Position numbers and translations under genes: made by a program
The notes under the pieces: model-generated
Seen by the model: only the letters and a program-made list of their open reading frames with translations
Database searches by the model: none
What the model was told of the DNA's origin: nothing
Shown: piece by piece, positions 7,771 through 31,973 of the stretch
How the letters are laid out: every line of letters begins with the position of its first letter
Position numbering within the stretch: position 1 is the first letter of the stretch
From: Laedolimicola intestinihominis
GTDB taxonomy: Bacteria > Bacillota > Clostridia > Lachnospirales > Lachnospiraceae
DNA length: 32,000 nt
Direction: 5' to 3'
NCBI RefSeq assembly: GCF_040096155.1
Contig: NZ_JBBMFE010000001.1
Location: 374,573 to 406,572 of the forward strand

Positions 7771-7778
7771 GAGCAGTT

Positions 7779-9404: not shown

Positions 9405-9422
9405 TCTATGATATCAGGGGTT

Positions 9423-9483
9423 TTAGGGGATTTTCCCCTAACCAGAGGCATTTGGACGGTGACGTCACAAATGCGTATCTGGC
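9423..9483 (+). promoter_or_regulatory. Candidate oriT core: two palindromes followed by a MOBP-like nic motif
   Basis: TTAGGGGA-TTT-TCCCCTAA (9423-9441), the 10-bp palindrome GTGACGTCAC (9459-9468), and 7 nt later TATCTGGC (9476-9483), which resembles the YATCCTG/Y nic core. It lies directly upstream of the mobC/relaxase operon. Confidence 0.3.
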
Positions 9484-9579
9484 AAGAGACCGACAGGGCT
9501 CTTGAAAAGAAGGGAGGAATAAAGTACGGAAGAAACAAAAATAGAGTGGATAAAAAATGCGGATGATTTTCTGGACTGG

Positions 9580-10047
9580 ATGACGGTCCACCAAAGCTAT
9601 TCGGCAGTTTTCAAAAAGGATGCGGCGGCTGTGCTGTTCTATGTAGAGCAGATGCAGTACGAGATTGGCAGTCGGGACGGGGAGCTTGTACGGCGGAAGA
9701 TTGGAAAAGAGAAAGTAGAGTCATACCGGTATGAGGATTTGATTGATGATGTAGATATCTGGATTTTTGGGAAAATACTGGAACTGAACGCGCTTCGGGA
9801 TGATTGTCGCAATGACATTGAACGGGCGGTTCATGAGAGCGAGTATCAGCGGCTGAAGGAGGATGAGCGGCGTGTCGGAAAACTGTACGAGAAGACTTGT
9901 TACGGGAAGGCAGTAGATGTCTTAGCGGAGCGGTTGGCAGAAAAACTGTTTGACAATATCCTGAAGGGCAAGTACAAGCAGGAAATTCAGGATATAGCAG
10001 AGAAAATCTGCAGTTTTGCGGAAGAGGAAAAGAAGTATGGCCGCTAA
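9580..10047 (+). CDS. Hypothetical protein, first gene of the relaxosome operon
   Basis: 155-aa ORF with coding-like composition. Its stop overlaps the MobC start by 11 nt. No family recognised. Confidence 0.6.
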   Translation: MTVHQSYSAVFKKDAAAVLFYVEQMQYEIGSRDGELVRRKIGKEKVESYRYEDLIDDVDIWIFGKILELNALRDDCRNDIERAVHESEYQRLKEDERRVGKLYEKTCYGKAVDVLAERLAEKLFDNILKGKYKQEIQDIAEKICSFAEEEKKYGR

Positions 10048-10363
10048 ATGGGTGCGGAAAACCGTACGATTAACGGAGATGGAAGCGAGGCTTTTGGCAG
10101 AAAGAGCTGCAGAGAGCGGATTACCGGAAAATCAGTACATTCGTTTCCAGATACGGCAAAGACCGTCAGATTATCCGGCGGTGCAAAAATTGTTAAAAGA
10201 GCTGCTCAATGAGATAAACCGGATAGGGAACAATATCAACCAGATTGTTCACGGAAATCACATGGATTTTTATACAGAAGCAGACAAAGAACAGCTTTCG
10301 GCTTATATGAGGCGGCTGAATCTGTCCATGCGTGAGGTGATAGAGAAAATTGGCAATCAGTAA
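10037..10363 (+). CDS. mobC: MobC-family relaxosome accessory protein
   Basis: VRLTEMEARLLAERAAESGLPENQYIRFQI ... LNEINRIGNNINQIV matches the MobC (RHH-like plus NNxNQ) pattern. I prefer the ATG at 10037 (GAGGAAAAG upstream) over the track start at 10016. Confidence 0.8.
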   Translation: MAAKWVRKTVRLTEMEARLLAERAAESGLPENQYIRFQIRQRPSDYPAVQKLLKELLNEINRIGNNINQIVHGNHMDFYTEADKEQLSAYMRRLNLSMREVIEKIGNQ

Positions 10364-11840
10364 AATTACCTGTATGAAAGATTGCGGAAAGAGTTATCAC
10401 GGAAAACATTTGAGGGCAGCTCTTGCATATATCACAGTTCCGGAAAAGACACAGCAAGGGAGGCTGGTGGCAGGTATAAATTGCGTACCGGAATTTGCTT
10501 TTGAGCAGATGAAGGATACAAAACGGAAATACGGGAAGTTAGACAAGCGGCAGGGATATCATTTGGTCTTATCCTTCAAAGAAAATGAGGTTACCCCGGA
10601 CACCGCCATGGAATTAACTTCCCGCTTCGTAAAGGAATATCTCGGCAGCGAATACGAGGCTGTCTACGCCGTCCACGACAACACCCGGCATATTCACGCC
10701 CATATCGTATTCAACAGCGTGAGCTTCCTAACCGGGAAAAAGTACCGCTATGAAAAAGGTGACTGGGCCAGGGAGATACAGCCTATCACCAACCGACTCT
10801 GTCAGGAGTATGGTCTGTCCACAATCGAAATTGAGGACGATAAGCTGAATCAGGATGTGGAATACCGGGAAACCCGGAAAGAGCAGGCAATTCAGCATGT
10901 CTGGAATTCGGCTATTCGGCGGGATCTGGATGCTTGTATCATTCTGTCAGCCACGTATGAGGAGTTTCAGCGGGAGCTTACAGAACGGGGCTATGAGTGT
11001 AAAGAAGGCAAGTATCTGGCTATCCGTCCGCCGGGCATGAAGCGGTTCCGCAGGACGCAGCGACTGGGAGAGGATTATACGATAGAACGAATACAGGAGA
11101 GAATTGAGACCGAAACTTTGCGGTCAGTCGCCAGGGCAGGCCAGGGCCATGCCCCGCGGATCGTGGGCGGCAGTGTCCGCAGACACCGGAGGCCGAAACT
11201 GACGGGTCTGCAGAAGCGGTACTTTGCCCGCCTGTACAGGATCGGCAAGCTGAAAAAGCGACCTTACAGTCAGGTGTGGAGATACTGGGAAGATATCCGG
11301 AAAATGAAAAAGCTCCAGAATCAATATCTGTTTCTGGCCAGAGAGGACATCACGACGGTTCCGGAGCTTCAGAATGCCGTACAGGCTCTGACTGCCAGGC
11401 AAAAGGAAGCGGCCAGGGAGAAAAGCCGTCTGGGAAAACAGAAGCACCGATTTCAGGAGTTGTTTGAATTGGCGGCAAAGATGGAGGAGCTGGAAGCAGC
11501 GTTTCATTCCTATGAGCGTGGCGATTCCTTTTTTACGGAAGAGCATCAGGAATATGAGGCGTGCCAGAAGGCCTTGGCGGAAAAGGGATATACCTATGAG
11601 GAAATCTGCGCGGTCAGGGAGCGGATTACCCGGGAGTATGCGGAAGCGACTTCCCGGGAACGGCAGCTCTACCGGGAACTGAAAACCGGAAAGGGACTGT
11701 TAAAAGAAATGGAAACAGAGGATAAAACACAGAGACAGACAAAGGGGGAAATAGATGGAACAGAACGAAGAGAAGAGCAGGAAGCTCAGCGCCAGGGAGA
11801 TCGAGGCGTATCTGCAGAAAATGAAAAAATCACATTATAG
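10350..11840 (+). CDS. Relaxase/mobilisation nuclease (MobA/VirD2 family)
   Basis: 496 aa. It has the histidine triad VHDNTRHIHAHIVFNSVS and an N-terminal MAISKI.. start typical of this family (TTG start at 10350; the alternative ATG is at 10374). The C-terminal half is a basic coiled coil. Confidence 0.85.
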   Translation: MAISKITCMKDCGKSYHGKHLRAALAYITVPEKTQQGRLVAGINCVPEFAFEQMKDTKRKYGKLDKRQGYHLVLSFKENEVTPDTAMELTSRFVKEYLGSEYEAVYAVHDNTRHIHAHIVFNSVSFLTGKKYRYEKGDWAREIQPITNRLCQEYGLSTIEIEDDKLNQDVEYRETRKEQAIQHVWNSAIRRDLDACIILSATYEEFQRELTERGYECKEGKYLAIRPPGMKRFRRTQRLGEDYTIERIQERIETETLRSVARAGQGHAPRIVGGSVRRHRRPKLTGLQKRYFARLYRIGKLKKRPYSQVWRYWEDIRKMKKLQNQYLFLAREDITTVPELQNAVQALTARQKEAAREKSRLGKQKHRFQELFELAAKMEELEAAFHSYERGDSFFTEEHQEYEACQKALAEKGYTYEEICAVRERITREYAEATSRERQLYRELKTGKGLLKEMETEDKTQRQTKGEIDGTERREEQEAQRQGDRGVSAENEKITL

Positions 11841-13688: not shown

Positions 13689-15782
13689 ATGCAGACGGGA
13701 AAGAAGAAGCCCGCCCTTCCGTGGCTGCTTGCTGGTGCAGTGTTGGCCGGATATCTGGGCTACATGCTTGGCGGAATCTGGAAGGAGGGAATAACCTATG
13801 TGGAGTTCATGGAGCGCTTGAGCGCAGTCTGTGAAAGACCCCTAGCCAATTATTGGAGCGCCTATTCGCTGAAACTGATTGCTTTTGCGGAGCTGATATA
13901 TGCGATGGCAATGCTCATGTACTACACCAGTGGACGGAACCTTATGCCCGGTAAGGAGCATGGTACAGCCCGTCTGGAGCCTCCAGCGCAGGCCGCCCGG
14001 CTTCTGGAGGATAAAGACCCGGAAAGAAACCGGATCTTGAGTAAAAATGTCCGTATGTCTATGGATTTCCGGAAACTAAAACTCAACGGGAATATCCTGA
14101 TCTGCGGAGGCTCAGGAGCCGGAAAGACCTTTTACTTTGTAAAGCCCAACCTGATGCAGCTCCCCAGGAACTGCTCTTTTATCTGTACCGATCCGAAGGG
14201 AGAGATCCTGCGAAGCTGCGGACAGATGCTAAAGGACAACGGCTATCAGGTGAAGGTCATCAACCTGTTGGAGATGGAAAAATCAGATTGCTATAACCCA
14301 TTCCGTTATATCCGTGAAGAGACCGATGTGGTGAAGCTGATTACGAACCTGATTGCCAATACCACACCAAAGGGAGCCAATTCTTCCGATCCGTTCTGGG
14401 AGAAAGCAGAGAGTATGCTGCTGCAGGCTCTCTTTTATTATGTCTGGCTGGAGGAACCGGACGCTACAAAGAACATGGGAACCGTGATGAAGCTTTTGGG
14501 AGAAGCGGAGGTAACGGAGCGGAACAAGCCGTCTAAGCTGGATCTGCGGATGCAGAAGCTGGCAGAGCGCTCTAAGCTGGGGAACCAGCACCCGGCCATT
14601 GTCCAGTATAACAAGTGTATGCGGGGAGCCGGGGATACGGTGCGGAGCATTATCATCAGCGCCAATTCTCGCTTGGCCTATCTGGAAAATCAGAAGGTAC
14701 TGCGGCTGTTGTCCAGGGATGATATGAATCTGGCGGAGCTTGGGACCGGCGTCAACCGGGACGAAAAGACTCGGACAGCACTTTTCTGTGTCATCCCGGA
14801 TTCTGATAAGTCCTATAACTTCATTATCGGTATGCTTTACACCCAGATCTTTCAGGAACTATACTATCAGGCCGACTTTGAGTACGGCGGGCGGCTGCCG
14901 ATTCATGTGACCTTTATGCTGGACGAGTTTGCGAATGTGGCACTGCCGGATGATTTTTGTTCCCTGCTTTCCACCATGCGAAGCAGGGAGATCAGCAGCA
15001 TTATCATCATCCAGAATTTCGCGCAGCTTAAAGCGCTGTTCAAGGATACCTGGGAGACGATACCCGGAAACTGCGATACGTTTATTTATCTGGGCGGCAA
15101 TGAGCAGAGTACCCACAAATATGTGTCGGATCTTCTGGGTAAAAGTACCATTGACAAGAAGTCCACGGGAGAAACAAAAGGGCGGCAGGGCAGCTCCAGC
15201 CGAAACTACGATGTTCTTGGGCGGGAGCTTCTGACGCCGGATGAGGTACGGAAGCTGGATAACAAGAAATGTATTCTCTTTATCCGTGGCCTGAATCCGG
15301 TTCTGGATGATAAATTTATTCCATTTTCCCATCCCATGTTTCACCAGACAGCAGACGGTGGTGGGGCTGCTTATGAGCATAAGCCCAAGGAAAATCAGAA
15401 GCCTTATGAACTGTTGAATGAAAAGGCGATACGTTATTACGAAAAGCAGAAGAAAGCCGGAGCGCCGGTCTATATCAATACGGTGACCTATGAGGCGTTT
15501 ATGCAACTGGGTGATGATGGGCAAAGGGAAAACCAAAGCGCAGACGGGCATAAGGGTCAGAAGGGACAAAACCGACAGAAAGCCAGGGAAAATCAGGCGG
15601 ATACTATCGTAGTCCGGATCACGAGGTGGGACTATTCTGCTGAGCAGATCGAAGAGTTGAAAAAAGCAATCCAGGCAGGGATTCCCCAGGAGAAACTACT
15701 GGAAATATTCTATCCGGATGTACGCGTGGAAGAAATGCGAACCTTTCGGATGGCTTACAAAAAAGGAGTGAAGAACGATTGA
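13689..15782 (+). CDS. Type IV coupling protein (VirD4/TraG family)
   Basis: 697 aa with N-terminal TM helices, Walker A GGSGAGKT and Walker B FMLDEFAN. Confidence 0.9.
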   Translation: MQTGKKKPALPWLLAGAVLAGYLGYMLGGIWKEGITYVEFMERLSAVCERPLANYWSAYSLKLIAFAELIYAMAMLMYYTSGRNLMPGKEHGTARLEPPAQAARLLEDKDPERNRILSKNVRMSMDFRKLKLNGNILICGGSGAGKTFYFVKPNLMQLPRNCSFICTDPKGEILRSCGQMLKDNGYQVKVINLLEMEKSDCYNPFRYIREETDVVKLITNLIANTTPKGANSSDPFWEKAESMLLQALFYYVWLEEPDATKNMGTVMKLLGEAEVTERNKPSKLDLRMQKLAERSKLGNQHPAIVQYNKCMRGAGDTVRSIIISANSRLAYLENQKVLRLLSRDDMNLAELGTGVNRDEKTRTALFCVIPDSDKSYNFIIGMLYTQIFQELYYQADFEYGGRLPIHVTFMLDEFANVALPDDFCSLLSTMRSREISSIIIIQNFAQLKALFKDTWETIPGNCDTFIYLGGNEQSTHKYVSDLLGKSTIDKKSTGETKGRQGSSSRNYDVLGRELLTPDEVRKLDNKKCILFIRGLNPVLDDKFIPFSHPMFHQTADGGGAAYEHKPKENQKPYELLNEKAIRYYEKQKKAGAPVYINTVTYEAFMQLGDDGQRENQSADGHKGQKGQNRQKARENQADTIVVRITRWDYSAEQIEELKKAIQAGIPQEKLLEIFYPDVRVEEMRTFRMAYKKGVKND

Positions 15783-17021: not shown

Positions 17022-17381
17022 ATGGTGATTGAGATGAATAAAGACATTGAAAAATATCAGGAATCGGTAGTATGGGGGCTGACAGTGAAGCAGCTCCTTT
17101 TTTCAGCCCTCAGCCTGCTGGCCGGAGGCGGTATTGTACTTCTGACCTACCAGACGGTGGGTCTTACCACGGCGGCTTATCTGGCGATTCCGGTGGCCGC
17201 GCCGATTGCCTTGGGCGGCTTTTACAGCTATCACGGCATGAGTTTTTATGAGGTGACCAGGCGGAGAATCCGTCAGCTATTTTTCAATCGGACATTACTG
17301 TACCGGTCACCGGAACGTAATGAGACGGAGAATCGGAAAAAGAAGAAACGGCAGAAGAAAAAGAGAAGGGGTGAAACATGA
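17022..17381 (+). CDS. PrgI-family (VirB3-like) membrane protein
   Basis: 119 aa with two TM helices after KYQESVVWGLTVKQLLF and a basic tail. Its stop overlaps the VirB4 start (ATGA). Confidence 0.7.
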   Translation: MVIEMNKDIEKYQESVVWGLTVKQLLFSALSLLAGGGIVLLTYQTVGLTTAAYLAIPVAAPIALGGFYSYHGMSFYEVTRRRIRQLFFNRTLLYRSPERNETENRKKKKRQKKKRRGET

Positions 17382-19792
17382 GATTATTTACAGATAGTTT
17401 TCAGCAACTGAAGAAAGCCAGTGTGCCCCTGTATCGGACGCCCAAGTCCATACAGGAGACCATTGAGATTCTGAAGGTGGCGGAGAATGGCATTTTTGAA
17501 GTGCGGAAAGGCCATTATTCCAAAAGCTACCGCTTTCAGGATATTAACTATACAACCACCACAGAGGGCGAGCAGCTCAGTATTATAGAACGGTACTGCA
17601 AGCTGCTGAACAGCTTGGACGTGGAGTTCAAAATCACATTGAACAATAAGAATAAGGACATGCAGAAGCTGCGGAAGAATGTGTTCCTGAAGGAGCGTCA
17701 GGACGGCTATGATGAGTATCGGGGTATGTATAACCACATCGTGGAGGAAAAGATTCAGGAAGGAAAACAGGGAATCGCCCAGGAGCGATATCTGACGATT
17801 ACGATTGAGCGTGGCAATTTTGAGGAAGCCAAAGCCCAGTTCGCGACAATCGAAGCGTCGCTGCAGAAGGCGTTTCGGGAGCTGGGAAGCCCGATTGTGC
17901 CCTTAAGCGGCAATGAGCGGATGCAGGTACTTTATGATTATTACCATCTGGGCGACGAGGAATCCTTTGATTTTGATATCCGGGAGGCGAAGCAAACAGG
18001 CACCGATTTTCGTAACGACTTGTGTAATGGGATGCTGAAATATTATTCCGATTACTTCCAGGATGAAAATAAGGTGGGTCGGGCGCTGTTTATTAAAAAA
18101 TATCCGTCCGGCCTGTCGGATGGTTTCTTAAATGAAATCGCCAGTCTGCCGGTCCATTCCGTGATTAGCATTGATGTAGTTCCGATTCCCAAAGAGTTGA
18201 CTACTAAGGTTTTGCAAAAAAAGTATCTGGGAATTGAATCCGATATTATCCGGCAACAGCGTGTCCGGAACCGGAACAACGACTTCTCTTCGGAAATTTC
18301 TTACACTAAAAGAAATGAAAAGAAGGAGATCGAGAACATCATGGACGATGTGCGGGATAACGACCAGTGCCTCTTTTATGTGGCGGTGACCATGGTATTT
18401 CTGGCGAAGACCAGGGAGGAGCTGGACAGTATCACCGATACAGTCATGACGATTGGCAAGCGCAACTCTGTGACAATAGACAAGCATTACCTGATGCAGA
18501 GAGAGGCAGTGAATACGGCGCTTCCCATCGGTGTCCGTCAGGTGGAGACTATGCGAACCATGCTGACCCAATCGCTGGCTTCCCTTCTGCCCTTCAACGT
18601 ACAGGAGCTGCAGGACGAAACCGGCGTTTACTACGGGATCAATCAGGTCAGTAAAAATATTAACGTGGGTAACCGGAAAAAACTCATGAATGGAAATGGC
18701 TTCATCTTCGGGGTTCCCGGAAGCGGCAAGTCTTTCTTTTCCAAGATGGCAATGGGAGCCGTCTATCTGAGCAATGGCCCGGACTGCCATACAGACGATA
18801 TCATTGTGGTGGATCCCATGAATGAGTATTTTGATATCGCAAAATTATATGGCGGAACAGTTGTAAACCTGAGCTCTTACACGGATAACTACATGAACCC
18901 GCTGGAAGTGGATCTGGCAGATCTGTCTGTCCTTAAACGCCGGGCGGTGATCCGGCAGAAGTCTGAGTTCATGCTGGGCCTGTGCGAGCAGTCCACCGGA
19001 GAGTCCTTGAATTCCCGGCAGAAAACGTTGATTGACCGTTGTGTTAGAAAAGTATATCAGGAGGCAGCCCGGAAGAAGCAGATCCCGGTGATGACAGACT
19101 TTTATCGGACACTATTGGAGCAGAAGGAGGAAGAGGCCAAGGGGCTGGCCTTATCCATGGAGTTATTCACGGAAGGTTCCTTGAATATTTTTAATCATCA
19201 GAGCAACGTGGATGTGGACAACCGGTTTCTGGTATTTGGTATTCAGGATCTGGGCGAGGAGTTGTTCCCCATTGCCATGCTGGTCATGCTGGAGTGTATC
19301 CAGCAGCGAATTATGGAAAACTGGAAAAAGGGGATTGCCACATGGTTATGGATCGACGAGTTCCATGTACTGCTCCAGTCTCCCTATTCTGCGAATTATC
19401 TTTGGGCGCTCTGGAAAAAGGTGCGAAAGCGCCGGGGTATCTGCACCGGTATTACCCAGAATCTGGCAGATATCCTGCGGAGCGACAGCCGGGATACCAT
19501 CGGTACCATGCTGGCCAATTCCGAATTTGTAGCTCTGCTCCGGCAGTCCAGTACCGATTTGGATACAGTGGCGGACGCCCTGAATATCTCAGAGGCGCAA
19601 CTGGATTATGTCAACAATGCCCCGGCAGGAACCGGCCTGCTCCGATTTGGGTCTGTAGTGATTCCTTTTGATGAGACGGTATCGAAAGATTCGAAGCTCT
19701 ATCAAATGTATAATACAAATCCCTATGAACTGGCGGAACAGGCTGAGTCAGCGGATGGAGGTGGCAGCACTGGTTATCCGGCAGAAGATTGA
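17378..19792 (+). CDS. VirB4-like conjugative ATPase
   Basis: 804 aa with Walker A GVPGSGKSF and Walker B LWIDEFH. Confidence 0.9.
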   Translation: MRLFTDSFQQLKKASVPLYRTPKSIQETIEILKVAENGIFEVRKGHYSKSYRFQDINYTTTTEGEQLSIIERYCKLLNSLDVEFKITLNNKNKDMQKLRKNVFLKERQDGYDEYRGMYNHIVEEKIQEGKQGIAQERYLTITIERGNFEEAKAQFATIEASLQKAFRELGSPIVPLSGNERMQVLYDYYHLGDEESFDFDIREAKQTGTDFRNDLCNGMLKYYSDYFQDENKVGRALFIKKYPSGLSDGFLNEIASLPVHSVISIDVVPIPKELTTKVLQKKYLGIESDIIRQQRVRNRNNDFSSEISYTKRNEKKEIENIMDDVRDNDQCLFYVAVTMVFLAKTREELDSITDTVMTIGKRNSVTIDKHYLMQREAVNTALPIGVRQVETMRTMLTQSLASLLPFNVQELQDETGVYYGINQVSKNINVGNRKKLMNGNGFIFGVPGSGKSFFSKMAMGAVYLSNGPDCHTDDIIVVDPMNEYFDIAKLYGGTVVNLSSYTDNYMNPLEVDLADLSVLKRRAVIRQKSEFMLGLCEQSTGESLNSRQKTLIDRCVRKVYQEAARKKQIPVMTDFYRTLLEQKEEEAKGLALSMELFTEGSLNIFNHQSNVDVDNRFLVFGIQDLGEELFPIAMLVMLECIQQRIMENWKKGIATWLWIDEFHVLLQSPYSANYLWALWKKVRKRRGICTGITQNLADILRSDSRDTIGTMLANSEFVALLRQSSTDLDTVADALNISEAQLDYVNNAPAGTGLLRFGSVVIPFDETVSKDSKLYQMYNTNPYELAEQAESADGGGSTGYPAED

Positions 19793-21494
19793 TAAGCCTG
19801 TCAGGTTGCATGTGAAGAAAGGCAGCGGTATCCGGGTGCGGACATCCGGTCAGAGAGTTGCAGTCAAAGGAGCCCGGATTTATACCGTACAGCGGGGGCC
19901 GAAGGTGAAAAGGGTCAGCACGAGGGCAGGCACTTCACGCCGCTACAACCGAAAAGGCAGTGACGCCTACCGACAGGGAAAGCGGTATTACACGACAGGA
20001 CGGTATCAGGCGGATCCTTACTATAATAAGAAGAGACAGGTACAGGCCATCCAAAAAGAAGGCTATCGGAAAGGAAAAGAGTTAAAAGGCAAAGAGAAGT
20101 CCCGGCCGGGAATCACAGGGGAAGACTGGTATAAAACGGAGGGCAGTCATAGACTACCAGAGCGCTCAGGCAGGGAGCAGTACAAAGAGAAAAGAAAAAG
20201 CCATTGGGAACGACGACATGACGAAAGACAGGTGGAGGACTATTCAAAAAGGGGAAAAGCCGGGAAAAAGCAGAAGCAGGCAGACACAAAAAAGGAAGCC
20301 ACAAAACGGCAGCTAAGGCAGAGAAAGGTTGCCTATTTCTTGGATAAGACCAGAGCTGAAGAAGAGCAAAAAGACAGTATTGCCAAGCTCACCCGGGATG
20401 TTGCCGTCAAGTATTTGGAGGTTCTCGTGAAAAAGGCGGTAGCAGCCATTGGCGGCTTTCTGGTGGGCGCAGCCCTTTTTATCGCAGTGGCCTTTATCCC
20501 GGTGGTGGCAGTGGTGACTATCCTTTACAATTCGCCGTTTGCCATATTTTTGCCGATACTGGAAGAAGGGGAACAGGTCACGGACGTATTTTCTTCTTAT
20601 CTGTCTGATTTCCGGAAGGAAGCAGAGCAGCTTGCGCAGGAGCATAGTGGGTACGACGAGGGAGAACTGATCTATGTGGACTATGAGGGAGGCGGGGCAG
20701 AGCCCTCCAATCTCTATGACATGATTGCCGTCTATATGGTCCGGTATGGTGTCGGGGACACGGCCTCTATTGTGAACGACACAACAAAAAGCTGGATGCG
20801 GACGGTTATGGAGGATATGTGCAGCTATATACTGGAGACCGGAACCGAGGAACGGGACACCGGAGAAAAGGATAAGAATGGTCAGGCCATTACTGAGACC
20901 GTCTCTGTCCTGTATGTGAAGGTTCATCTGAAAACCTATTCAGATATGGTGGCAGAGTACGGCTTCGGCGAAGATGAAGTAGCCATGCTGGAAGAGCTTA
21001 TGCGTCCGGAAAATCTGGCTCTGCTTGGCGGCAATGGCGCGGACAGCTTTGAAAAGCTTACGGAAGAAGAGATCCGGACTGCTCTTGGCGATGCTTCCGG
21101 TGATGTGGGAACAGCTCTGTCCTATGCGCTTAGTAAGGTGGGCTATCCATACAGTCAGGAGCTGCGGGACAGTGGAGACTATTATGATTGCAGCTCTCTG
21201 GTCTATTATGCGTGGAAGGCAGCCGGAGTGGATATCAGCTACGGCAGCTCCTACTCGGCGGCGGCCCAGGCCCAGGGACTGGAACAGGCCGGAAAGAGCG
21301 TCCCGTTGGAAGAATTGCAGCCCGGAGATTTGATTTATTTTAGCTTTGTTCACAATGAACGTTATAAGAATATCAGCCATGTCGCCATCTATGCCGGAAA
21401 CGGTATGATAATCGAGGCGGCAAATGAAAGCACAGGCGTCGTATACCGTAAGCTTCACAGCCAGAGAAGCATTGTAACGGTATGCAGGCCCTAG
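19755..21494 (+). CDS. NlpC/P60 (C40) cell-wall hydrolase with a basic N-terminal region and a TM segment
   Basis: The C-terminus GYPYSQELRDSGDYYDCSSLVYYAW ... ISHVAIYAGNGMIIEAAN gives the Cys/His catalytic pair. There is a TM helix (AAIGGFLVGAALFIAVAFIPVVAVV). The start is uncertain: the track ORF opens at 19668 inside virB4, and in-frame candidates are ATG 19755, TTG 19806 and GTG 19812. Confidence 0.75.
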   Translation: MEVAALVIRQKIDKPVRLHVKKGSGIRVRTSGQRVAVKGARIYTVQRGPKVKRVSTRAGTSRRYNRKGSDAYRQGKRYYTTGRYQADPYYNKKRQVQAIQKEGYRKGKELKGKEKSRPGITGEDWYKTEGSHRLPERSGREQYKEKRKSHWERRHDERQVEDYSKRGKAGKKQKQADTKKEATKRQLRQRKVAYFLDKTRAEEEQKDSIAKLTRDVAVKYLEVLVKKAVAAIGGFLVGAALFIAVAFIPVVAVVTILYNSPFAIFLPILEEGEQVTDVFSSYLSDFRKEAEQLAQEHSGYDEGELIYVDYEGGGAEPSNLYDMIAVYMVRYGVGDTASIVNDTTKSWMRTVMEDMCSYILETGTEERDTGEKDKNGQAITETVSVLYVKVHLKTYSDMVAEYGFGEDEVAMLEELMRPENLALLGGNGADSFEKLTEEEIRTALGDASGDVGTALSYALSKVGYPYSQELRDSGDYYDCSSLVYYAWKAAGVDISYGSSYSAAAQAQGLEQAGKSVPLEELQPGDLIYFSFVHNERYKNISHVAIYAGNGMIIEAANESTGVVYRKLHSQRSIVTVCRP

Positions 21495-21888: not shown

Positions 21889-24800
21889 ATGTATCAGATG
21901 AATCAGCTATATGACACCGCAGTGCAGAGGGCAGCCGCGTCTTCCGAGACCTGGAAAGAGGTGCTGCGGCTGAATGGGCGGCTGTACCGGTACGAGTGGG
22001 AAAATATACTGTTAATCTGGATACAGCGTCCGAATGCAGTGCTGGCGGCTGATTATGACAGTTGGAAAAAGGTAGACCGCTATGTACGCCGGGGAAGCAG
22101 GGGGATCGGTATCTTTCCTTCCAGGGCTTTAAAATCGCATTTGCGCTATGTATTTGATTTCAAGGACACCGGGGGAAGAAACCGGAAACTTACCTGGGAT
22201 CTGGAAGGGCCACATCTAAAGGAATATCTGGACTATCTGGTAGAAAGCGGGCAGATGGAAGCCTACGACGAAAAGGGCGATGAAAAGGCGCAAAAAAATC
22301 TGTTAAATATATTTACAGGAACAAATGTTTGGTCTATGATAAAAGCAGATTACAGCGAACGAATTTCAGATCTGGTCAGGACAGCGAAAGGGATGACAGA
22401 AGAAAAGGCCAAAGATATGATCTATCGCAGCGTCCTATATACGGTAGGAAGCAGGTGCAGTCTGGATACCGTAGAGCCGGATTTTTCAGATATCCGGGAT
22501 TACGCAGACGAAGAGATCCTGTATCGGCTGGGGACACTGGTCAATGATATATCCTGTGAGATCTTAAGGGAGTTCGCGCGAAATATCCGATACATGGAAC
22601 GCGAAAGGAGAAGGATATACGATGGAAGGGATGAATCTGCATTATCAACGAAAAGACGGCCTGCTGTATCCGGAGATGGAAGTACCCGGTCAGGATCTGA
22701 GTCGCGTCGGAAAGTACGGCCATCTGGCCATGCGCTATCTGAAAGAGAACGAGGAGAGCCGGTACAGCTTTCTTTACCGCTGTGGGAAACTGGAGGAGAA
22801 GATGCGGGAAGTAGACCGGGAAGCGAACGAGATGCTGGCAGAGCTGATGGACAGTTACCTGAAATCCAGGCCCCTGCAGAACCGGAGATCCTTTCTGGAA
22901 CAGTGGAAGCTGCGGGAACAGGCGCAGATGCAGGCGGAGGAGATCGTATTGCGCGAGATTGTCTGGCAGTATCATTAGATTTTCACTATGATCTCTGGGA
23001 GCTTCCGGAAGGAGGCCCCAAGACCAGATACCAGTGGAACCGGGAGGCTATTCAGACCTTAAAGCGGATTGAGTCAGAGGGCCGGAGGGCGACAGCGGAG
23101 GAACAGCAGACTCTATCGAAATATGTGGGCTGGGGCGGTCTGTCCCAGGCATTCGATGAACAAAATCCAGGCTGGGCCAAAGAATACGCGGAACTTAAAG
23201 GGCTTCTGAACCCGGAGGAATATGCGGCAGCGCGTGCCTCAGTCAATACCGCGTTTTACACACCGCCGGAGGTGGCGGCCTGCATGGGGCAGGCGTTGGA
23301 ACAATTCGGATTTCGCTCCGGAAATATATTGGAACCGTCTATGGGAATCGGCAGCTTCTTCGGAAGTATGCCGATTTCTTTGCAGAACAGCAAACGCTAT
23401 GGTGTGGAACTTGATCGAATATCCGGAAGGATAGCAAGGCAGTTGTACCAGACGGCCAAGATTCAGATTACCGGCTTTGAAAAGACTGCTTTTCAGGCCG
23501 ATTTTTTTGATGTGGTTATTGGAAATGTGCCCTTTGGCGATTATAAGGTCCATGACCCGGCCTACGATAAGTATCATTTCCGGATTCACGATTATTTTAT
23601 CGCGAAAGCCCTGGATCTGGTAAGGCCCGGAGGCATGGTGGCAGCAATTACCACCAAAGGAACCATGGATAAGAGCAATCCGACCGTGAGAAAGTATCTA
23701 GCGGAGCGAGCCGAGTTGAAAGGAGCGATTCGGCTTCCCAGTACAGCGTTCAAGGCGCAGGCCGGAGCCGAGGTGACGGCAGATATCCTGTTTTTGCAGA
23801 AACGGGAGCGAAAAATGGAGGTGGAACCGGACTGGGTACATCTGGGATATACGGAGGACGGCATTGCGGTAAATTCCTATTTCGCAGAGCATCCGGAAAT
23901 GATGCTGGGCAGGATGGAGTATGACAACGGTCCCTTTGGAGCAGACAGCCATTATACCGCCTGTGTAAACCGTGATCCGGATTTCAATCTGTATGCGGCT
24001 CTGCGTAAGGCCATCGGCAATATTCATGCGGAGTTGGCAGCCTTTGAACATGTCGTGGAAAGAGAGGAGACGACAGAGGAAATCATTCCCGCAGACCCGG
24101 AGGTAAAAAATTATACTTTTACGTTTCTAAATGGAAAGCTGTATTACCGGGAAAATTCTCAGATGTATCTGCGTGAGGTGTCCGGGCGGGAAAAAGAGCG
24201 AATCCAGGGGCTTGACGTGATCCGGAATCAGGTACGCAGCCTGATCCGTCTGGAGCTTGGAGGATGCACAGCGGCAGAGCTGAAGCCGGAGCTGGAAAAG
24301 CTAAATCAGATCTACGATGCGTATGTGGAAGAATATGGGTATCTGACGGGCACAGAGAATGGCCGTGTCTTCCGAGATGACGCGGATTATCCGCTCTTGT
24401 GTTCGCTGGAATGTGTGGAAGAAAACGGGGCTGTCAAAAAGGCAGATATTTTTTATAAGCAGACCATCAAACCGGATGTGCGGGTGGAGCACGTGGATAC
24501 GGCCACCGAAGCCTTGTATATCTCCATGAATGAGCGAGGCTGCGTGGATCTGGAATTTATGTATGGACTTTATCAGCCGGATTTACTGAAATACCAGAAA
24601 GAGGTGGCAGAGGTCACCGGCCAGCAGCCGGAAGAAATTGCATTTACGGAGGCGGAGAAGAAAGAACTGTCCCTTAGTGCCATTGCAGAGGAGCTAAAAG
24701 GCATTATTTATCTGAACCCGGAACGCTATCACGCGCAGAGTCCGTGGAACGGCTGGGAGATGGCCGGGGAATATCTGTCAGGCAATGTCCGGAATAAGCT

Positions 24801-27030
24801 GAAAATCGCCCAGGAGGCAGCAAAGAAGAATCCGGAGCAGTTCCGGGCCAATGTAGAAGCCCTTGAGCTGGTGCAGCCGGAATATATTTCAGCAGCGGAT
24901 ATCAATGTGCGGCTCGGTACGACGTGGATCGATATAGAAGACTATGAGGCCTTCCTGTATGAGCTTCTGGATACCCCGTATCGGTACCAGAGAGGAAACT
25001 GGGACGGAAGATATGAAATACGGATCCAACTGAACCGCTACAATATGGAATATCACATCCTGAATAAGTCCATGCACAGTTCCGGCGTGCTAGTGAAAAA
25101 GAACTACGGTACCGAGCGGATGGATGCCTATTCTATCGTAGAAGCGACGTTAAATCTGCGGACAGTCGTGGTCAATGATCGGGAAGAGCTGGGCGGAGGA
25201 AAGTACCGGTATGTGGTGAACAAGGTGGAAACCATGCTTGCCCGGGAAAAACAGAACCAGATTCAGGAGGCCTTTCGGGAATGGATTTTTCGGGACCCGG
25301 AGCGTCGGCAGAAATACGAACGGTATTATAATGAAACCTTTAACTGTATCCGTCTGAGGGAATACGATGGTTCATACCTGCAATTTCCGGGCATGAACCC
25401 GGAGATCGAGCTGCTCCCACACCAGAAAAACGCGGTAGCACGTATTCTTTTCGGGGGAAATACCCTACTTGCCCATTGCGTGGGGGCTGGGAAGACCTTT
25501 GAAATGGTAGCGGCCTGTAAGGAGCAGAAACGGCTTGGAATTGCCTATAAAACCGCTATGGTAGTACCCAAAAGCGTCATTATGCAAACGGCCAGTGAGT
25601 TCCTGCGCCTTTATCCGTCCGCAAATATCCTGATTGCCACGGAACGGGATTTTGAGAAAAGTAGACGCCAGCAGTTCATCAGCAGAATCGCGACCGGGGA
25701 CTACGACTGTATTATCATGTCCCATTCGCAGTTCGAGAAAATCCAGATTTCGCCGGAGCGCAGGGAACAGCTGCTCAGTGACAAGGTGGAAGAGCTCCAA
25801 GAGGCTATTGGAGAGGAAAAAATGAAAAATGGGGAACGCTGGACGATTAAGCAGATGGAAGCGCAGAAGAAGCGGCTGGAAACACAGTTGTCCATGCTTG
25901 CGGACGAGCGGCGGAAGGATGATCTGGTCTACTTTGAAGAACTTGGCATTGATAGTATTATGGTCGATGAAGCACATTTTTATAAAAATATGGCCATCTT
26001 TTCCAAAATGAGCAGGGTGTCCGGTATCACAGCAAATGGAGCAAAAAAATGTACGGACATGGAGATGAAGTGTCAGTACCTGACAGAGCTGAACGGCTCC
26101 CGGGGAATCGTGTTTGCCACCGGAACGCCCATCAGTAACACCATGTGTGAGATGTATGTGATGCAGACTTACTTGCAAAAAGAGACGCTGGAGCAGATGG
26201 GACTAAGCCATTTTGACGCATGGGCCGCCAATTTCGGAGAGGTGACCACGGCGCTGGAACTGACCGTGGAAGGAAGCGGCTTCCGGTTTAAAAGCCGGTT
26301 TAACCGTTTTGTGAATCTCCCGGAGCTTATGAGTATGTTCCGGGAGGTGGCGGACGTGCAGACAGCGGAGATGCTAAACTTAAATATCCCGAAGCTGCGG
26401 GGCGGAAAAGCCATTATCGTGGAAACGGAGCCGGATTTCTATGTAAAAGATCTCATGCAGGAAATAGTGGAACGGGCAGATCGCATCCGAAACGGGGCAG
26501 TGTCACCGAACGAGGACAATTTCCTGAAAATCACCCATGAGGCAAGACTTCTGGGAACGGACGCGCGTCTGCTGCGTGCGGATGCGCCCAACAATCCGGA
26601 TGGAAAACTGAATAAGGTGGTAGAAAATGTATTCTATGAATATAAGAAAGCAGAAGCTGATGGCCGGATAGGCTGCCAGCTTATTTTTTCGGATATCGGT
26701 ACGCCGGGAGGCAAGGAGTTCGACGTCTACCATTATATCAAGGACGAGCTGATGGAACAAGGAATCCCGGAGGAAGAGATTGCGTTTATCCATGACGCCA
26801 AGACAGATAAGCAGCGCGCGGCGTTGTTTCGGGAGATGCGCAGCGGCAAGCGGCGTATCCTGATTGGCTCTACGGAAAAATGCGGTGTCGGCGTCAATGT
26901 ACAGCGCCATATCGTAGCCATCCACCATGTGGATTGTCCGTGGAGGCCGGACGATGTAGGACGGATTTTGCGGACATTCAAAATAAAAAAGAATGTGGAG
27001 GTAACAGACAATGGCAAAATCATTATTTGA
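21889..27030 (+). CDS. Polyvalent ICE protein: ArdC-N-like domain, disordered linker, N6-adenine DNA methyltransferase, SNF2/DEAD-like helicase; 3'-truncated
   Basis: ArdC-N-like [39 protein letters not shown]. MTase motif [12 protein letters not shown] and motif [10 protein letters not shown]. Helicase motif I CVGAGKTF, motif [12 protein letters not shown], motif [11 protein letters not shown] and motif [14 protein letters not shown]. The ORF ends ...[35 protein letters not shown], that is, inside or at motif VI. Confidence 0.8.
22622..22978 (+). CDS. TnpV-family small protein, nested in an alternative frame inside the polyvalent ORF
   Basis: 118-aa ORF bounded by TAA (22565-22567) and TAG (22976-22978). 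AAAGGAGAAGG lies 8 nt before the ATG. It is colinear with the TnpV at 27011-27385 (Y.R....L.P...VP......G..G.....YLK......Y..L...G.L ... coiled C-terminus ... EIV). Confidence 0.65.
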
Positions 27031-27385
27031 GGAACTGGGCGGCAAATACGAAAGGCAAGGGGATTATTTGATACCGTGCTTAACTGTACCCGCCGAAGAA
27101 GAACAGGCAATAGGCATCTGGGGGCAACGGCATTTAGATTATCTAAAACAGTACCGTAAAGTTACATACACCAATCTTCTTACAAGCGGCAGGCTAAACG
27201 CCTACCTTGCCGACATCAACAGACAGGCACAGGAACGCTTTGAAAGGCTCATAGAGGGTATGAAACAGGCACAGGGCATAACGGAACAGCTAAAGGCAGA
27301 AAACGCCTTAGAATGGACAGGATGCCTCAATAACATAAGGGCTTGTGCGAGGGAGATTGTGGAAAAGGAAATTATTTTTGCATAA
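27011..27385 (+). CDS. tnpV: TnpV-family protein
   Basis: [80 protein letters not shown]... is recognisable as the protein family annotated TnpV in Firmicutes transposons. GGAGG lies 9 nt upstream. Confidence 0.8.
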
Positions 27386-27398
27386 ACAGATGATTAGT

Positions 27399-27425
27399 GG
27401 CAGGGGGAAATCCTGCCGCTTTTTC
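27399..27425 (+). terminator. Terminator after tnpV
   Basis: GGCAGG-GGGAAAT-CCTGCC, then GCTTTTTCT. Confidence 0.5.
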
Positions 27426-27442
27426 TGCTTTAGTTTGTCAGC

Positions 27443-27471
27443 TTGACAAATAAAGGGTTAAGGAATATAAT
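27443..27471 (+). promoter_or_regulatory. Consensus sigma-70 promoter of tet(O)
   Basis: TTGACA (27443-27448), an exactly 17-nt spacer, then TATAAT (27466-27471). Confidence 0.75.
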
Positions 27472-27503
27472 TAGATTCAGTATTATACAAGGAGTTAATA
27501 AAT

Positions 27504-27527
27504 ATGCGGCAAGGTATTCTTAAATAA
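27504..27527 (+). promoter_or_regulatory. Short leader ORF (MRQGILK) in the tet(O) leader
   Basis: AAGGAG lies 9 nt upstream of the ATG at 27504. Seven codons then TAA, located between the promoter and the attenuator hairpins. Confidence 0.45.
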
Positions 27528-27678
27528 ACTGTCAATTTGATAGTGGGAACAAAAAGTAGCAGTCTCGTTTCACTTTTAATATGGGGCTTAGTTTTTTGTA
27601 CCCAGTTTAAGAATACTTTTATCATGTAATTTTATATGCCCGAAAACATATAAGTGTTTTGGGGCTATTGGAGTTATT

Positions 27679-27716
27679 TACCCAGTGATAGGAGTATTTA
27701 TCACTGGGTATTTTTA
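27679..27716 (+). terminator. Leader terminator (attenuator) just upstream of tet(O)
   Basis: TACCCAGTGATA (27679-27690) pairs perfectly with TATCACTGGGTA (27699-27710), a 12-bp stem with an 8-nt loop, followed by TTTTTAT. A second copy of TACCCAGT at ~27600 could compete for the right arm. Confidence 0.65.
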
Positions 27717-27751
27717 TGCCCTTTTTTGGGTGTTGATAGGAGGAAAATCAC

Positions 27752-29671
27752 ATGAAAATAATTAACTTAGGCATTCTGGCTCACGTTGACGCAGGAAAGA
27801 CAACATTAACGGAAAGTTTATTGTATACCAGTGGTGCAATTGCAGAACTAGGGAGCGTAGATGAAGGCACAACAAGGACAGATACAATGAATTTGGAGCG
27901 TCAAAGGGGAATCACTATCCAGACAGCAGTGACATCTTTTCAGTGGGAGGATGTAAAAGTCAACATTATAGATACGCCAGGCCATATGGATTTTTTGGCG
28001 GAAGTATACCGTTCTTTATCCGTATTAGACGGAGCAGTATTATTAGTTTCTGCAAAGGATGGCATACAGGCACAGACCCGTATACTGTTTCATGCACTAC
28101 AGACAATGAAGATTCCGACAATTTTTTTCATCAATAAAATTGACCAAGAGGGGATTGATTTGCCAATGGTATATCGAGAAATGAAAGCAAAGCTTTCTTC
28201 GGAAATTATAGTGAAGCAAAAGGTTGGGCAGCATCCCCATATAAATGTAACGGACAATGACGATATGGAACAGTGGGATGCGGTAATTATGGGAAACGAT
28301 GAACTATTAGAGAAATATATGTCAGGGAAACCGTTTAAAATGTCAGAACTGGAACAGGAAGAAAACAGGAGATTCCAAAACGGAACGTTATTTCCCGTTT
28401 ATCACGGAAGCGCTAAAAACAATCTGGGGATTCGGCAGCTTATAGAAGTGATTGCCAGTAAATTTTATTCATCAACGCCTGAAGGTCAATCTGAACTATG
28501 CGGGCAGGTTTTTAAGATTGAATATTCAGAGAAAAGGCGGCGTTTTGTTTATGTGCGTATATATAGCGGAACATTGCATTTGAGGGATGTTATTAGAATA
28601 TCTGAAAAAGAGAAAATAAAAATCACAGAGATGTGTGTTCCGACAAACGGTGAATTATATTCATCCGATACAGCCTGCTCTGGTGATATTGTAATTTTAC
28701 CAAATGATGTTTTGCAGCTAAACAGTATTTTGGGGAACGGAATACTGTTGCCGCAGAGAAAATTTATTGAAAATCCTCTCCCTATGCTCCAAACAACGAT
28801 TGCAGTAAAGAAATCTGAACAGCGGGAAATATTGCTTGGGGCACTTACAGAAATTTCAGATGGCGACCCTCTTTTAAAATATTATGTGGATACTACAACG
28901 CATGAGATTATACTTTCTTTTTTGGGGAAAGTGCAGATGGAAGTCATTTGTGCCATCCTTGAGGAAAAATATCATGTGGAGGCAGAAATAAAAGAGCCTA
29001 CTGTTATATATATGGAAAGACCGCTTAGAAAAGCAGAATATACCATCCACATAGAAGTCCCGCCAAATCCTTTCTGGGCTTCTGTCGGGTTGTCCATAGA
29101 GCCGCTCCCTATTGGAAGCGGAGTGCAGTATGAAAGCAGAGTTTCACTTGGATATTTAAATCAATCGTTCCAAAATGCGGTTATGGAGGGGGTTCTTTAT
29201 GGCTGCGAGCAGGGGCTGTATGGATGGAAAGTGACAGACTGTAAAATCTGTTTTGAATATGGATTGTATTATAGTCCTGTAAGTACCCCCGCAGACTTTC
29301 GGCTGCTTTCCCCTATCGTATTGGAGCAGGCTTTAAAAAAAGCAGGGACAGAACTATTAGAGCCATATCTCCACTTTGAAATTTATGCACCGCAGGAATA
29401 TCTCTCACGGGCGTATCATGATGCTCCAAGGTATTGTGCAGATATTGTAAGTACTCAGATAAAGAATGACGAGGTCATTCTGAAAGGAGAAATCCCTGCT
29501 AGATGTATTCAAGAATACAGGAACGATTTAACTTATTTCACAAATGGGCAGGGAGTCTGCTTGACAGAGTTAAAAGGATACCAGCCAGCTATTGGTAAAT
29601 TTATTTGCCAACCCCGCCGCCCGAATAGCCGTATAGATAAGGTTCGGCATATGTTCCACAAGTTAGCTTAA
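27752..29671 (+). CDS. tet(O): Ribosomal protection tetracycline resistance protein Tet(O) or a Tet(O)-like mosaic
   Basis: The 639-aa translational GTPase reads [81 protein letters not shown]... and ends ...[20 protein letters not shown]. It matches my memory of Tet(O) nearly throughout and is clearly distinct from Tet(M). AGGAGG lies 8 nt upstream. Confidence 0.93.
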
Positions 29672-30386: not shown

Positions 30387-30896
30387 GTGAAATACGCACC
30401 GAGAAAGGTATATATCAAGGAAAGCGGCAGATATGTGGAACTGTCCTATACGGATTTCTGCCGCCGCAGGGAATCCGACCAGACCTATATGGACAAGCTG
30501 TTTATCCCCATTCAAGGCTGTCTGCTTGAAGTCGTGAGGGAGCAATACACGGACTTCTACCGAGATAAGGAACGGTGGCGTTATCTGAAAAAATTAGATA
30601 CGAAGAACAGCCTGCTTTCTCTGGATGGATTTACGGACAGCGAGGGGAAGCCTTTAGACTTTATCGCTGATGAAGCGGCAGACATTGCGGAAACCGTTGT
30701 CAATGCGGTTATGGTGGACAGGCTGAAAGCCGCCCTGCCTTTGCTGTCGGATAGTGAACAGGAATTGATACAGGCAATCTTTTTTGACGGACTTTCTGAG
30801 CGTGAAGTCGGGGCGAGGTTCGGCATAACCCAGAGCGTTGTGAACAAACGCAAAGCCAGAATCCTAAGAAAACTAAGAAAGATAATAGAAAATTAA
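30387..30896 (+). CDS. Sigma-70 region-4-like HTH regulator (1 of 3)
   Basis: GTG start with GGGAGG 8 nt upstream. The C-terminus LPLLSDSEQELIQAIFFDGLSEREVGARFGITQSVVNKRKARILRKLRK is a region 4.2 HTH. Confidence 0.8.
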   Translation: MKYAPRKVYIKESGRYVELSYTDFCRRRESDQTYMDKLFIPIQGCLLEVVREQYTDFYRDKERWRYLKKLDTKNSLLSLDGFTDSEGKPLDFIADEAADIAETVVNAVMVDRLKAALPLLSDSEQELIQAIFFDGLSEREVGARFGITQSVVNKRKARILRKLRKIIEN

Positions 30897-30912
30897 AATT
30901 TAAGGCGTTCAG

Positions 30913-30952
30913 CCCCCTTGTTTTTTCCTTTGGGAAAATGAGGGGGTTTTTC
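30913..30952 (+). terminator. Terminator between sigma-like genes 1 and 2
   Basis: CCCCCT...AGGGGG outer stem with an inner TTTTCC/GGAAAA pairing, then TTTTTCT. It lies inside the track ORF 30938.., which argues for the later start at 30992. Confidence 0.6.
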
Positions 30953-30991
30953 TCTGCCCTCTCAATCAATTCTGATTGGAGGAAAAGAAGC

Positions 30992-31423
30992 ATGGCATAT
31001 AACCACGGACGGGAGGACAGGAAATGGCGTATCTGGAAAGAAGCGGAGGAAAAGCTGCTGCGTGAGTGCGGCGTTGATGAAGCGACCATTGAGCAGATAC
31101 GCATTGCGGACAGGGCAGACTTCAATTCCAACAGGCGGTTTTACCGATGGACGAATGACATTGCGGAATACCTTGAGGACATGGCAGACAGGGAGCGGCA
31201 GACGGAAGTGGGTACGGTTGCGGAGTTACTGGACGAGATTGAGAGCGAAAATCTCTATCAAGTATTAGTCGCGGTGGACGGGCGTACCTTGAAAATCGTC
31301 CTGCTGAAAATGCAGGGGTATTCCACAAAGGAGATTGCCCCGCTCGTGCATTTGACGACTGGTGCCATCTATGCGAGGTTAGACCATCTGCGGAAGAAGC
31401 TACGAAAATTTTATAGCGTCTAA
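30992..31423 (+). CDS. Sigma-70 region-4-like HTH regulator (2 of 3)
   Basis: GGAGG lies 9 nt before the ATG at 30992. The C-terminus VDGRTLKIVLLKMQGYSTKEIAPLVHLTTGAIYARLDHLRKKLRK is a region-4/LuxR-like HTH. Confidence 0.75.
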   Translation: MAYNHGREDRKWRIWKEAEEKLLRECGVDEATIEQIRIADRADFNSNRRFYRWTNDIAEYLEDMADRERQTEVGTVAELLDEIESENLYQVLVAVDGRTLKIVLLKMQGYSTKEIAPLVHLTTGAIYARLDHLRKKLRKFYSV

Positions 31424-31451
31424 AACAGCCTGCCGTCCTGCGGGCTACTGG

Positions 31452-31483
31452 GTGAGGGATGGAAATCCCCTCACTTATTTTTT
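31452..31483 (+). terminator. Terminator between sigma-like genes 2 and 3
   Basis: GTGAGGG-ATGGAAATC-CCCTCAC followed by TTATTTTTT. It lies inside the track ORF 31452.., which argues for the start at 31500. Confidence 0.6.
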
Positions 31484-31499
31484 GCAGGAGGCAAGCGGG

Positions 31500-31973
31500 A
31501 TGGCATACAGAGTTAAGGCGTACACGCTTCGGGAGGAATCCACGGAAAGCGGCACAAGGTATTTTATCAGCTTTAAGGACGGGCAGGGCAAATCCCACGA
31601 GTTGGAAGTGTCGGAACAGTTCTTTATGGAGTTTCGGCAGATGGAACGCAGGAACAGGAATCTCCTCCAATGGGACGAGCGGCACAGGGAGTTTTCGGAA
31701 GTATGGGACGAAACGCTGAACAGGCGGGCGTTGAAGCTGCCTAAGAGCATAGAGGAACAAATGATTGAGGCAGAACGGGCAGAACTGCTCTGTAAGGCGG
31801 TTGACGGACTGCCAGAGATACAAAGGCGGCGTTTCCTGCTCTACTACGAGTATGAGTTCAATTTTTACCAAATCGCCGCTATGGAGCATTGCACCGCTTC
31901 GGCAATACAGAAATCTGTTGCGATTGCAAAGGAGAAAGTAAAGGCGGAAATGAGGAAGTATCTCCAACCGTGA
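31500..31973 (+). CDS. Sigma-70 region-4-like HTH regulator (3 of 3)
   Basis: AGGAGG lies 8 nt before the ATG at 31500. The C-terminus LPEIQRRRFLLYYEYEFNFYQIAAMEHCTASAIQKSVAIAKEKVK is a region-4-like HTH. Confidence 0.75.
   Translation: MAYRVKAYTLREESTESGTRYFISFKDGQGKSHELEVSEQFFMEFRQMERRNRNLLQWDERHREFSEVWDETLNRRALKLPKSIEEQMIEAERAELLCKAVDGLPEIQRRRFLLYYEYEFNFYQIAAMEHCTASAIQKSVAIAKEKVKAEMRKYLQP

Follow-up and report, generated by a model that had tools for sequence, protein, structure and literature searches.

Can one stretch of messenger RNA on a mobile element encode a complete small protein in one reading frame and part of a giant protein in another? The question is raised by a locus in a 32,000-nucleotide (nt) stretch of the Laedolimicola intestinihominis genome (contig NZ_JBBMFE010000001.1, positions 374,573 to 406,572), which we refer to throughout as the window and whose own numbering we use. 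Here a gene of the TnpV family lies entirely inside a much longer open reading frame (ORF) that encodes a polyvalent protein. We conclude, with a probability of about 0.85, that the two form a conserved same-strand overlapping gene pair, in which an internal start makes TnpV and the polyvalent frame makes a linker. The features concerned are these:

21889-27030, plus strand: giant polyvalent-protein ORF of 1713 amino acids (aa), truncated at its 3' end in the window
21982-22116, plus strand: ArdC-N-like core, aa 32-76 of the giant ORF (Pfam ArdcN, E=0.0023, under the gathering cut-off)
22565-22567, plus strand: TAA closing the TnpV frame upstream of its start
22594-22990, plus strand: long-frame linker of ~130 aa (aa 236-367) and low complexity, between the ArdC-N-like and methyltransferase (MTase) modules
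22603-22615, plus strand: Shine-Dalgarno (SD) sequence GAAAGGAGAAGGA for the nested gene, inside the long ORF, found by sequence inspection
22622-22978, plus strand: nested tnpV-family gene of 118 aa, from ATG 22622 to TAG 22976-22978, in the +1 frame relative to the giant ORF
23218-23814, plus strand: N6-adenine DNA MTase domain, aa 444-642 (Pfam N6_Mtase and Eco57I)
25405-26955, plus strand: SNF2/DEAD helicase core (aa 1173-1368) and partial Helicase_C (aa 1619-1689), from Pfam and homologue alignment

The original prediction, made from the DNA letters and their translations, had placed the giant ORF in the phase of 21889, open across the nested region, and had described an SD-preceded 118-aa ORF one nt out of phase with it and closed upstream by the TAA; these coordinates and frames proved correct. 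It had also assigned the nested ORF to the TnpV family and aligned it with a second TnpV encoded at 27011-27385, and both statements hold. The nested ORF matched the Pfam TnpV family (PF14198) over profile positions 2-111 of 111 (E=5.5e-25; 87.9 bits, cut-off 27), and its residues 8-115 aligned with the second TnpV at 24% identity (E=6e-11), while NCBIfam had no model for either TnpV of the window. An AlphaFold2 model built from a 58-sequence alignment (mean predicted local confidence, pLDDT, 88; predicted template-modelling score, pTM, 0.70) has a beta-hairpin at residues 8-17 followed by four helices, and confidently predicts a small protein able to fold alone. A promoter scan found two sigma-70-like matches (10 of 12 positions) at 22312-22421, inside the long ORF and 200-300 nt upstream of the nested tnpV. 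Promoter-like sites numbered four in the scanned region, which is a non-significant excess over the 1.7 +/- 1.2 expected; this count leaves an internal promoter for tnpV possible but unsupported.

The giant ORF encodes, from N to C terminus, a divergent ArdC-N-like N-terminus, the linker, the N6-adenine MTase, the SNF2/DEAD helicase and Helicase_C. The presence of N6_Mtase/Eco57I, SNF2 and Helicase_C in one ORF, with genes of type IV secretion system (T4SS) type upstream, is the arrangement of a polyvalent protein. The ArdcN match scored 18.6 bits in the window, against a gathering cut-off of 22.6, and 25.2 bits in a homologue on a Clostridium perfringens plasmid. Of 9 scanned homologues, 6 had ArdcN as their sole N-terminal Pfam match, as did the window. 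A PDB sequence search with the N-terminal module returned ArdC matches only, which were non-significant (E ~0.9) and in the wrong region. The linker is of low complexity, as had been noted, with 75% G/S/R/E/D/A/P compared with 45% in the rest of the giant protein, and gave no Pfam match in the long frame even at E<=10. The MTase region had been said to lack any start codon of its own. This was too strict, since long-frame GTG codons are present at 22903 and 23125, but no clear SD precedes either of them, and each is situated within conserved sequence or 3' of it, so that the dependence of the MTase on the long frame stands. In relatives, extra domains separate the overlap from the MTase, which ties the overlap to the C-terminal side of the N-terminal module and not to the MTase.

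Comparison with homologues, which the original prediction had called for, shows that both frames are kept in about 80 related elements from two Firmicutes classes, Clostridia and Bacilli. The nested arrangement was intact in 78 of 79 related loci, at TnpV identities as low as 28%, and its carriers are integrative and conjugative elements and plasmids of Lachnospiraceae, Oscillospiraceae, Clostridium, Enterococcus and Virgibacillus. A genome scan restricted to one genome per species yielded 73 loci with TnpV identities of 35-57%, from Lachnospiraceae, Oscillospiraceae/Ruminococcaceae, Clostridium, Lacrimispora, Anaerosporobacter and others. At 72 of these the TnpV ORF (~115-130 codons) lay wholly within a long ORF that was in frame +2 relative to TnpV and started ~750-900 nt upstream of it. 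Within the fetched loci the long ORF ran from 416 to more than 1700 codons, most exceeding 1700 and remaining open at the locus edge. An GAAAGGAG-type SD and an ATG were found at all 73 nested loci, with an SD-like core 5-11 nt 5' of the ATG and a spacing of exactly 8 nt in 59 of them. Two loci whose flanking domains are ~40% identical (L001 and L002) also carry a TnpV-like ORF in the same place and relative frame, with SD and ATG, which ends ...(Y/F)H-stop.

Plasmids carry the same arrangement. A megablast search of 21889-23448 against plasmids gave no match, and tblastn was needed; it returned 15 records, from Clostridium botulinum, C. perfringens, Virgibacillus and Enterococcus faecalis, at 28-39% identity. 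Fourteen of the 15 matches fell under a long coding sequence (CDS) annotated as SNF2-related, helicase-related or similar, or in an unannotated record, and one (H15) had no listed feature beneath it. On the four plasmids that we inspected, the TnpV ORF lay 510-740 nt downstream of the annotated CDS start, to which it was +1. It had an SD and ATG of its own; the long frame was open, whereas the third, control frame contained 15-22 stops. The only one of the 79 loci with a closed long frame was L070 (3956-4333), where the C-terminus of TnpV is degenerate and the tnpV lies no more than 45 nt from the contig end; this is probably a decayed or misassembled copy.

Selection on the two frames was analysed in a set of 39 non-redundant nested genes. 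Pairwise nt differences at codon positions 1, 2 and 3 were 0.33, 0.21 and 0.47 in the TnpV frame, and 0.47, 0.33 and 0.21 in the long frame. The first is the classic pattern of a coding sequence and the second is its inverse, although in its single-coding upstream flank the long frame shows a normal pattern (0.37, 0.29 and 0.57). Read in the TnpV frame, the overlap had an amino-acid identity of 59%; read in the long frame, it had 38%. The ratio of nonsynonymous to synonymous differences per site (pN/pS, Nei-Gojobori) in the overlap was 0.26/0.68, or 0.38, for TnpV, falling to 0.19 among closer pairs, and 1.77 for the long frame. The TnpV frame is therefore under purifying selection at the amino-acid level. 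In 57 closer pairs, TnpV (pN 0.076, pS 0.405) was constrained no less than the ArdC-N-like region next to it (pN 0.095, pS 0.39). The original prediction had asked whether synonymous variation is suppressed by dual coding; as these pS values show, the long frame does not lower the synonymous rate of TnpV.

Constraint from the long frame appears elsewhere, in the absence of stops. When each TnpV protein was recoded with local codon usage, 7.8 long-frame stops were expected per gene, and none was observed in 39 of 39 genes. For the window, 4.6 stops were expected and the probability of an open long frame, P(open), was 0.0025; the mean P(open) over the 39 homologues was 0.0005, so the nesting is more than chance. 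The means by which the frame is kept open can be read from the codons. TnpV codons that precede AA, AG or GA never end in T (0 of 1644), whereas T makes up 13% at other positions and 29% in the flanks, and four AT-rich or divergent plasmid copies likewise have zero T at their 34-50 at-risk sites. Among stand-alone tnpV genes used as controls, 6 of 7 carry 4-14 stops in the frame that nested copies keep open. One of these six is the stand-alone copy at 27011 in the window, an internal control with four such stops. We conclude that the long frame is kept open by selection, through the choice of synonymous codons in TnpV, while its sequence itself is unconserved; the avoidance of T before AA, AG and GA is the only visible dual-frame constraint.

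The homologous polyvalent proteins do resemble one another in the linker. Selection on the linker sequence was considered as the cause of this similarity and rejected, since the similarity follows from the conservation of TnpV and is a by-product of it; the TnpV motif 'TMEMWQ', for example, reads as 'NGDVA' in the long frame.

In the arrangement that we favour, the locus has a complete ORF embedded on the same strand, with its own initiation signals, and both frames are under selection. The mRNA of the polyvalent gene would be read in two frames over ~360 nt. Ribosomes starting at ATG 21889 would read through the overlap as a disordered, G/S/R/E/D-rich spacer of ~120 aa, tethering the ArdC-N-like module (of a single-stranded-DNA-binding type) to the DNA-methylase and SNF2-helicase modules. 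Other ribosomes would initiate at the internal SD and ATG 22622, in the +1 frame, and release a free 118-aa folded TnpV. Selection would then act on the amino acids of TnpV and, in addition, on its synonymous codons to exclude long-frame stops. This agrees with the suggestion in the original prediction of genuine overprinting, with the linker encoded over a small gene, which the comparative frame and selection evidence supports.

Several observations weigh against this reading. We infer the translation of either product across the overlap from selection signatures alone. The 39 sequences share ancestry and their counts are non-independent, which is mitigated by near-saturated synonymous sites (pS ~0.68). 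One stand-alone control, from Cohnella (57% G+C), is also open in the +2 frame. This is the tnpV at 1489-1827 of L089, a Cohnella herbarum plasmid, which has no +2-frame stop and no long ORF around it; its open frame may be due to chance, given the richness in G+C. Foldseek searches with the TnpV model found no significant relative, the best matches having E=3.3 in PDB and E=0.26 in BFVD, the latter an uncharacterised phage protein. The polyvalent protein of the window copy, being truncated at the 3' end, may be crippled. Finally, in L083 and L084 (3-551; 490 onward) the long frame stops ~90 nt after the nested tnpV, at a T-run (...QASFF-stop), and a 1658-aa gene continues in a different frame; the two are separate runs, apparently from one project. 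A frameshift in the homopolymer could account for the break, whether as a sequencing error or as a real change that splits the gene or makes it phase-variable. An early end of the long frame implies that fusion to the downstream modules is non-obligatory.

Four other explanations can be set against the same evidence. Programmed frameshifting, which the original prediction had listed, would require a +1 shift just 5' of 22622 to give an ArdC-N-TnpV fusion, or a shift into the TnpV frame and out again, and the SD-like sequence would then be a frameshift stimulator instead of an initiation signal. SD-like elements within ORFs can indeed stimulate frameshifting, as is established for prfB and dnaX, and this precedent favours the idea, as does the TnpV frame being open 5' of the ATG, for 54 nt in the window and 27-120 nt in homologues. 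However, an ATG occupies the aligned start in every locus, mostly at the canonical 8-nt spacing from the SD, and a TnpV-frame stop lies upstream of it. The position of that stop varies among loci and the peptide that would precede the ATG is unconserved. The site has neither a conserved slippery motif nor a long-frame stop, and strong selection for an open long frame would be pointless if ribosomes left that frame. No database protein fuses TnpV in frame to polyvalent modules, TnpV hits being ~110-190 aa and nearly all 115-136 aa. We consider frameshifting very unlikely. Slightly less probable again is that the engulfed tnpV is a fossil, no longer expressed, whose conservation is a by-product of constraint on the long frame. 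The annotation of plasmids in RefSeq with the long CDS only, and the lack of an established role for TnpV, would fit such a view. The order of variation in the TnpV frame (position 3 > 1 > 2) and the long-frame pN/pS of 1.77 point the opposite way, as do a constraint on TnpV at least equal to that of the adjacent ArdC-N-like region, and the intact ORF, SD and ATG of 78 of the 79 loci, which span Clostridia and Bacilli and identities as low as 28%.

If the ArdC-N-like, tnpV and MTase-helicase regions were instead three separate genes, with a long frame open by chance and not translated as one protein, the occurrence of the modules apart from each other would be readily explained (a relative, P0041, begins at the MTase, and the gene is split in L083/L084), and the Cohnella control suggests that the +2 frame of a tnpV can be open by chance. 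This explanation nevertheless has to accommodate 78 open frames in 79 loci at a P(open) of ~0.0005 per gene and the lack of T at all 1644 at-risk sites. It also has to account for an upstream module without an in-frame stop, and for the lack of both a start codon and an SD before the conserved beginning of the downstream module; we find it hardly credible. An artefact, by which assembly or sequencing errors or paired compensating indels displace an in-frame segment, has only the a priori oddity of the locus in its favour. The same two open frames are present in L080, a metagenome assembly made independently, which matches at 95.3% identity without a gap across 1506 nt, and TnpV is +1 in all 79 loci, from different species and assemblers. 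We reject this explanation, which the original prediction had also raised, and give it next to no weight.

How the overlap arose can be approached through the stand-alone relatives of TnpV. We infer the direction of overprinting, and any functional link between the products, from comparisons of this kind. TnpV is probably the older frame and the linker the overprinted newcomer, because TnpV belongs to a widespread stand-alone family and is predicted to be well folded, whereas the linker appears disordered and is unconstrained in sequence. In a small neighbour-joining tree with seven stand-alone TnpVs, the nested TnpVs formed one clade apart, with 45% identity within the nested group and 26% between nested and stand-alone proteins. 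Most likely, the long frame arose when the reading of an ArdC-N-like gene was extended across a tnpV already present downstream of it and on into the modules beyond. A fusion by read-through had been among the original suggestions; it is compatible with the nested clade and the modular relatives and is the origin that we prefer, but it is not proven.

Two relatives illustrate the modularity. P0041 starts at the MTase module and is without the N-terminal module. In P0071 (L091 69-1718), acidic tandem repeats (…EDNTKEPESAN…) form the linker between the ArdC-N-like module and the MTase, and the gene has no nested TnpV-like ORF, which makes it a natural comparator for the evolution of the linker. 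These architectures imply that the modules have been shuffled and that the linker sequence as such is dispensable. A more far-reaching proposal is that the polyvalent gene engulfed an older tnpV, read in the -1 frame, with the linker born de novo and TnpV becoming a co-evolved functional partner across Clostridia and Bacilli. The role of TnpV might then be that of a chaperone or adaptor in T4SS export; alternatively, it might be a regulator whose ratio to the polyvalent protein is fixed by their shared mRNA. We regard this proposal as speculative and, taken as a whole, rather unlikely. If true, such engulfment would reverse the usual direction of overprinting and would give mobile elements a general way of building giant fusion proteins.

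On its gene content, the window is part of a conjugative element. Apart from the overlap itself, its features are the following, identified with Pfam where indicated:

2548-3543: OLD-like TOPRIM (Pfam)
5879-6820: DUF5688 (Pfam)
8285-9256: DUF3991/Toprim (Pfam)
10350-11840: relaxase (Pfam)
13689-15782: type IV coupling protein (T4CP; Pfam)
17378-19792: VirB4-like ATPase (Pfam)
19668-21494: NlpC/P60 hydrolase (Pfam)
27011-27385, plus strand: second, stand-alone tnpV of 124 aa (Pfam)
27752-29671: Tet(M/W/O/S)-family ribosomal-protection gene, following the stand-alone tnpV
30387-31973: three consecutive ORFs with sigma-70 region 4, downstream of tet (Pfam)

The stand-alone tnpV at 27011-27385, which the last 20 nt of the giant ORF overlap, is 100% identical to tnpV on plasmids of Campylobacter, Enterococcus, Salmonella and Ligilactobacillus. 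The region around 26950-29671 looks as if a widely travelled tnpV-tet(O)-type cassette had been inserted there into the polyvalent gene. A point that the original prediction had missed is that the 1713-aa ORF is itself truncated at its 3' end by this tnpV-tet cassette. Its alignment to a 2109-aa homologue on a C. botulinum plasmid ends near residue ~1805 of the homologue, and the end of the helicase (the motif VI region) is lost.

Annotation pipelines treat the overlap inconsistently. Annotation software excludes fully nested genes by design, and on the RefSeq plasmids (L076-L079) the long CDS is called alone and the nested tnpV is omitted. The NCBI annotation of Lacrimispora sp. 38-1 (L082, JBANEW010000027.1) calls the nested 'TnpV protein'. 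There the long frame stays free of stops from 5133 until past 12365, yet 5133-10022 has no protein assigned to it; an 851+-aa helicase, in frame with that stretch, is annotated from position 10023 on.

Long, fully nested same-strand gene pairs with solid evolutionary support are, to our knowledge, very rare in bacteria. The locus described here offers a clean case, with a recognised Pfam family, about 80 sampled elements and textbook signatures of dual-frame selection. Many of these elements are found in gut Firmicutes and among the plasmids of pathogens (C. perfringens, C. botulinum and E. faecalis). The pair is a tractable model for the birth of a disordered linker by overprinting and for the assembly of giant polyvalent proteins, and it links the TnpV family physically with the machinery by which conjugative elements that disseminate tetracycline resistance counter restriction and become established. 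We did not find the overlap described in literature on TnpV, on overlapping or overprinted genes and conjugative elements, on embedded genes and SNF2 or on polyvalent proteins, and the overlap of TnpV with a polyvalent gene is apparently undescribed.

The spanin genes of phage lambda provide a close parallel, as Rz1 is wholly embedded in the +1 frame of Rz. There too the inner gene is small, complete and equipped with start signals of its own, and it lies in the +1 frame of a larger gene on the same strand; the overlap is conserved across relatives on a mobile element, and both Rz and Rz1 are functional. The two systems differ in that the lambda products are both subunits of a single complex and Rz1 is regarded as the younger gene, whereas the nested TnpV comes from an old and widespread stand-alone family, and what has probably been overprinted on it is a disordered linker in a giant multidomain protein. 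Other small ORFs nested out of frame, with internal ribosome-binding sites, are comS in srfAB of Bacillus subtilis, mobB in mobA of RSF1010, and mbeB and mbeD in mbeA of ColE1, and those of RSF1010 and ColE1 also lie in DNA-transfer genes. In contrast to comS, which has 46 codons and is lineage-restricted, the nested tnpV has 118 codons, belongs to a Pfam family, occurs in two Firmicutes classes and shows measurable dual selection.

The nested TnpVs resemble those of Tn4451/Tn4453 and those linked to tet(O) in their full-length family match, similar size, predicted helical fold and occurrence on mobile elements of Firmicutes. For the TnpV of transposons an Xis-like role in excision has been postulated by similarity (PMC3158075), and tnpV is also the gene found upstream of tet(O) (PMC11913394). 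Canonical tnpV genes stand alone, beside a serine recombinase or resistance genes (PMC3158075; PMC11913394), whereas the nested copies lie within a polyvalent gene, form a separate clade (~26% identity) and have third positions depleted of T. The giant ORF fits the polyvalent proteins surveyed by Iyer et al. 2017 (PMC5512222) in being a giant polypeptide that combines methylase and SNF2 helicase modules with a putative ArdC-N-type module, next to T4SS genes. That survey makes no mention of TnpV, an overlapping gene or an alternative frame (PMC5512222), and the locus differs from the polyvalent-protein concept as set out there in that an inter-domain linker doubles as a second gene.

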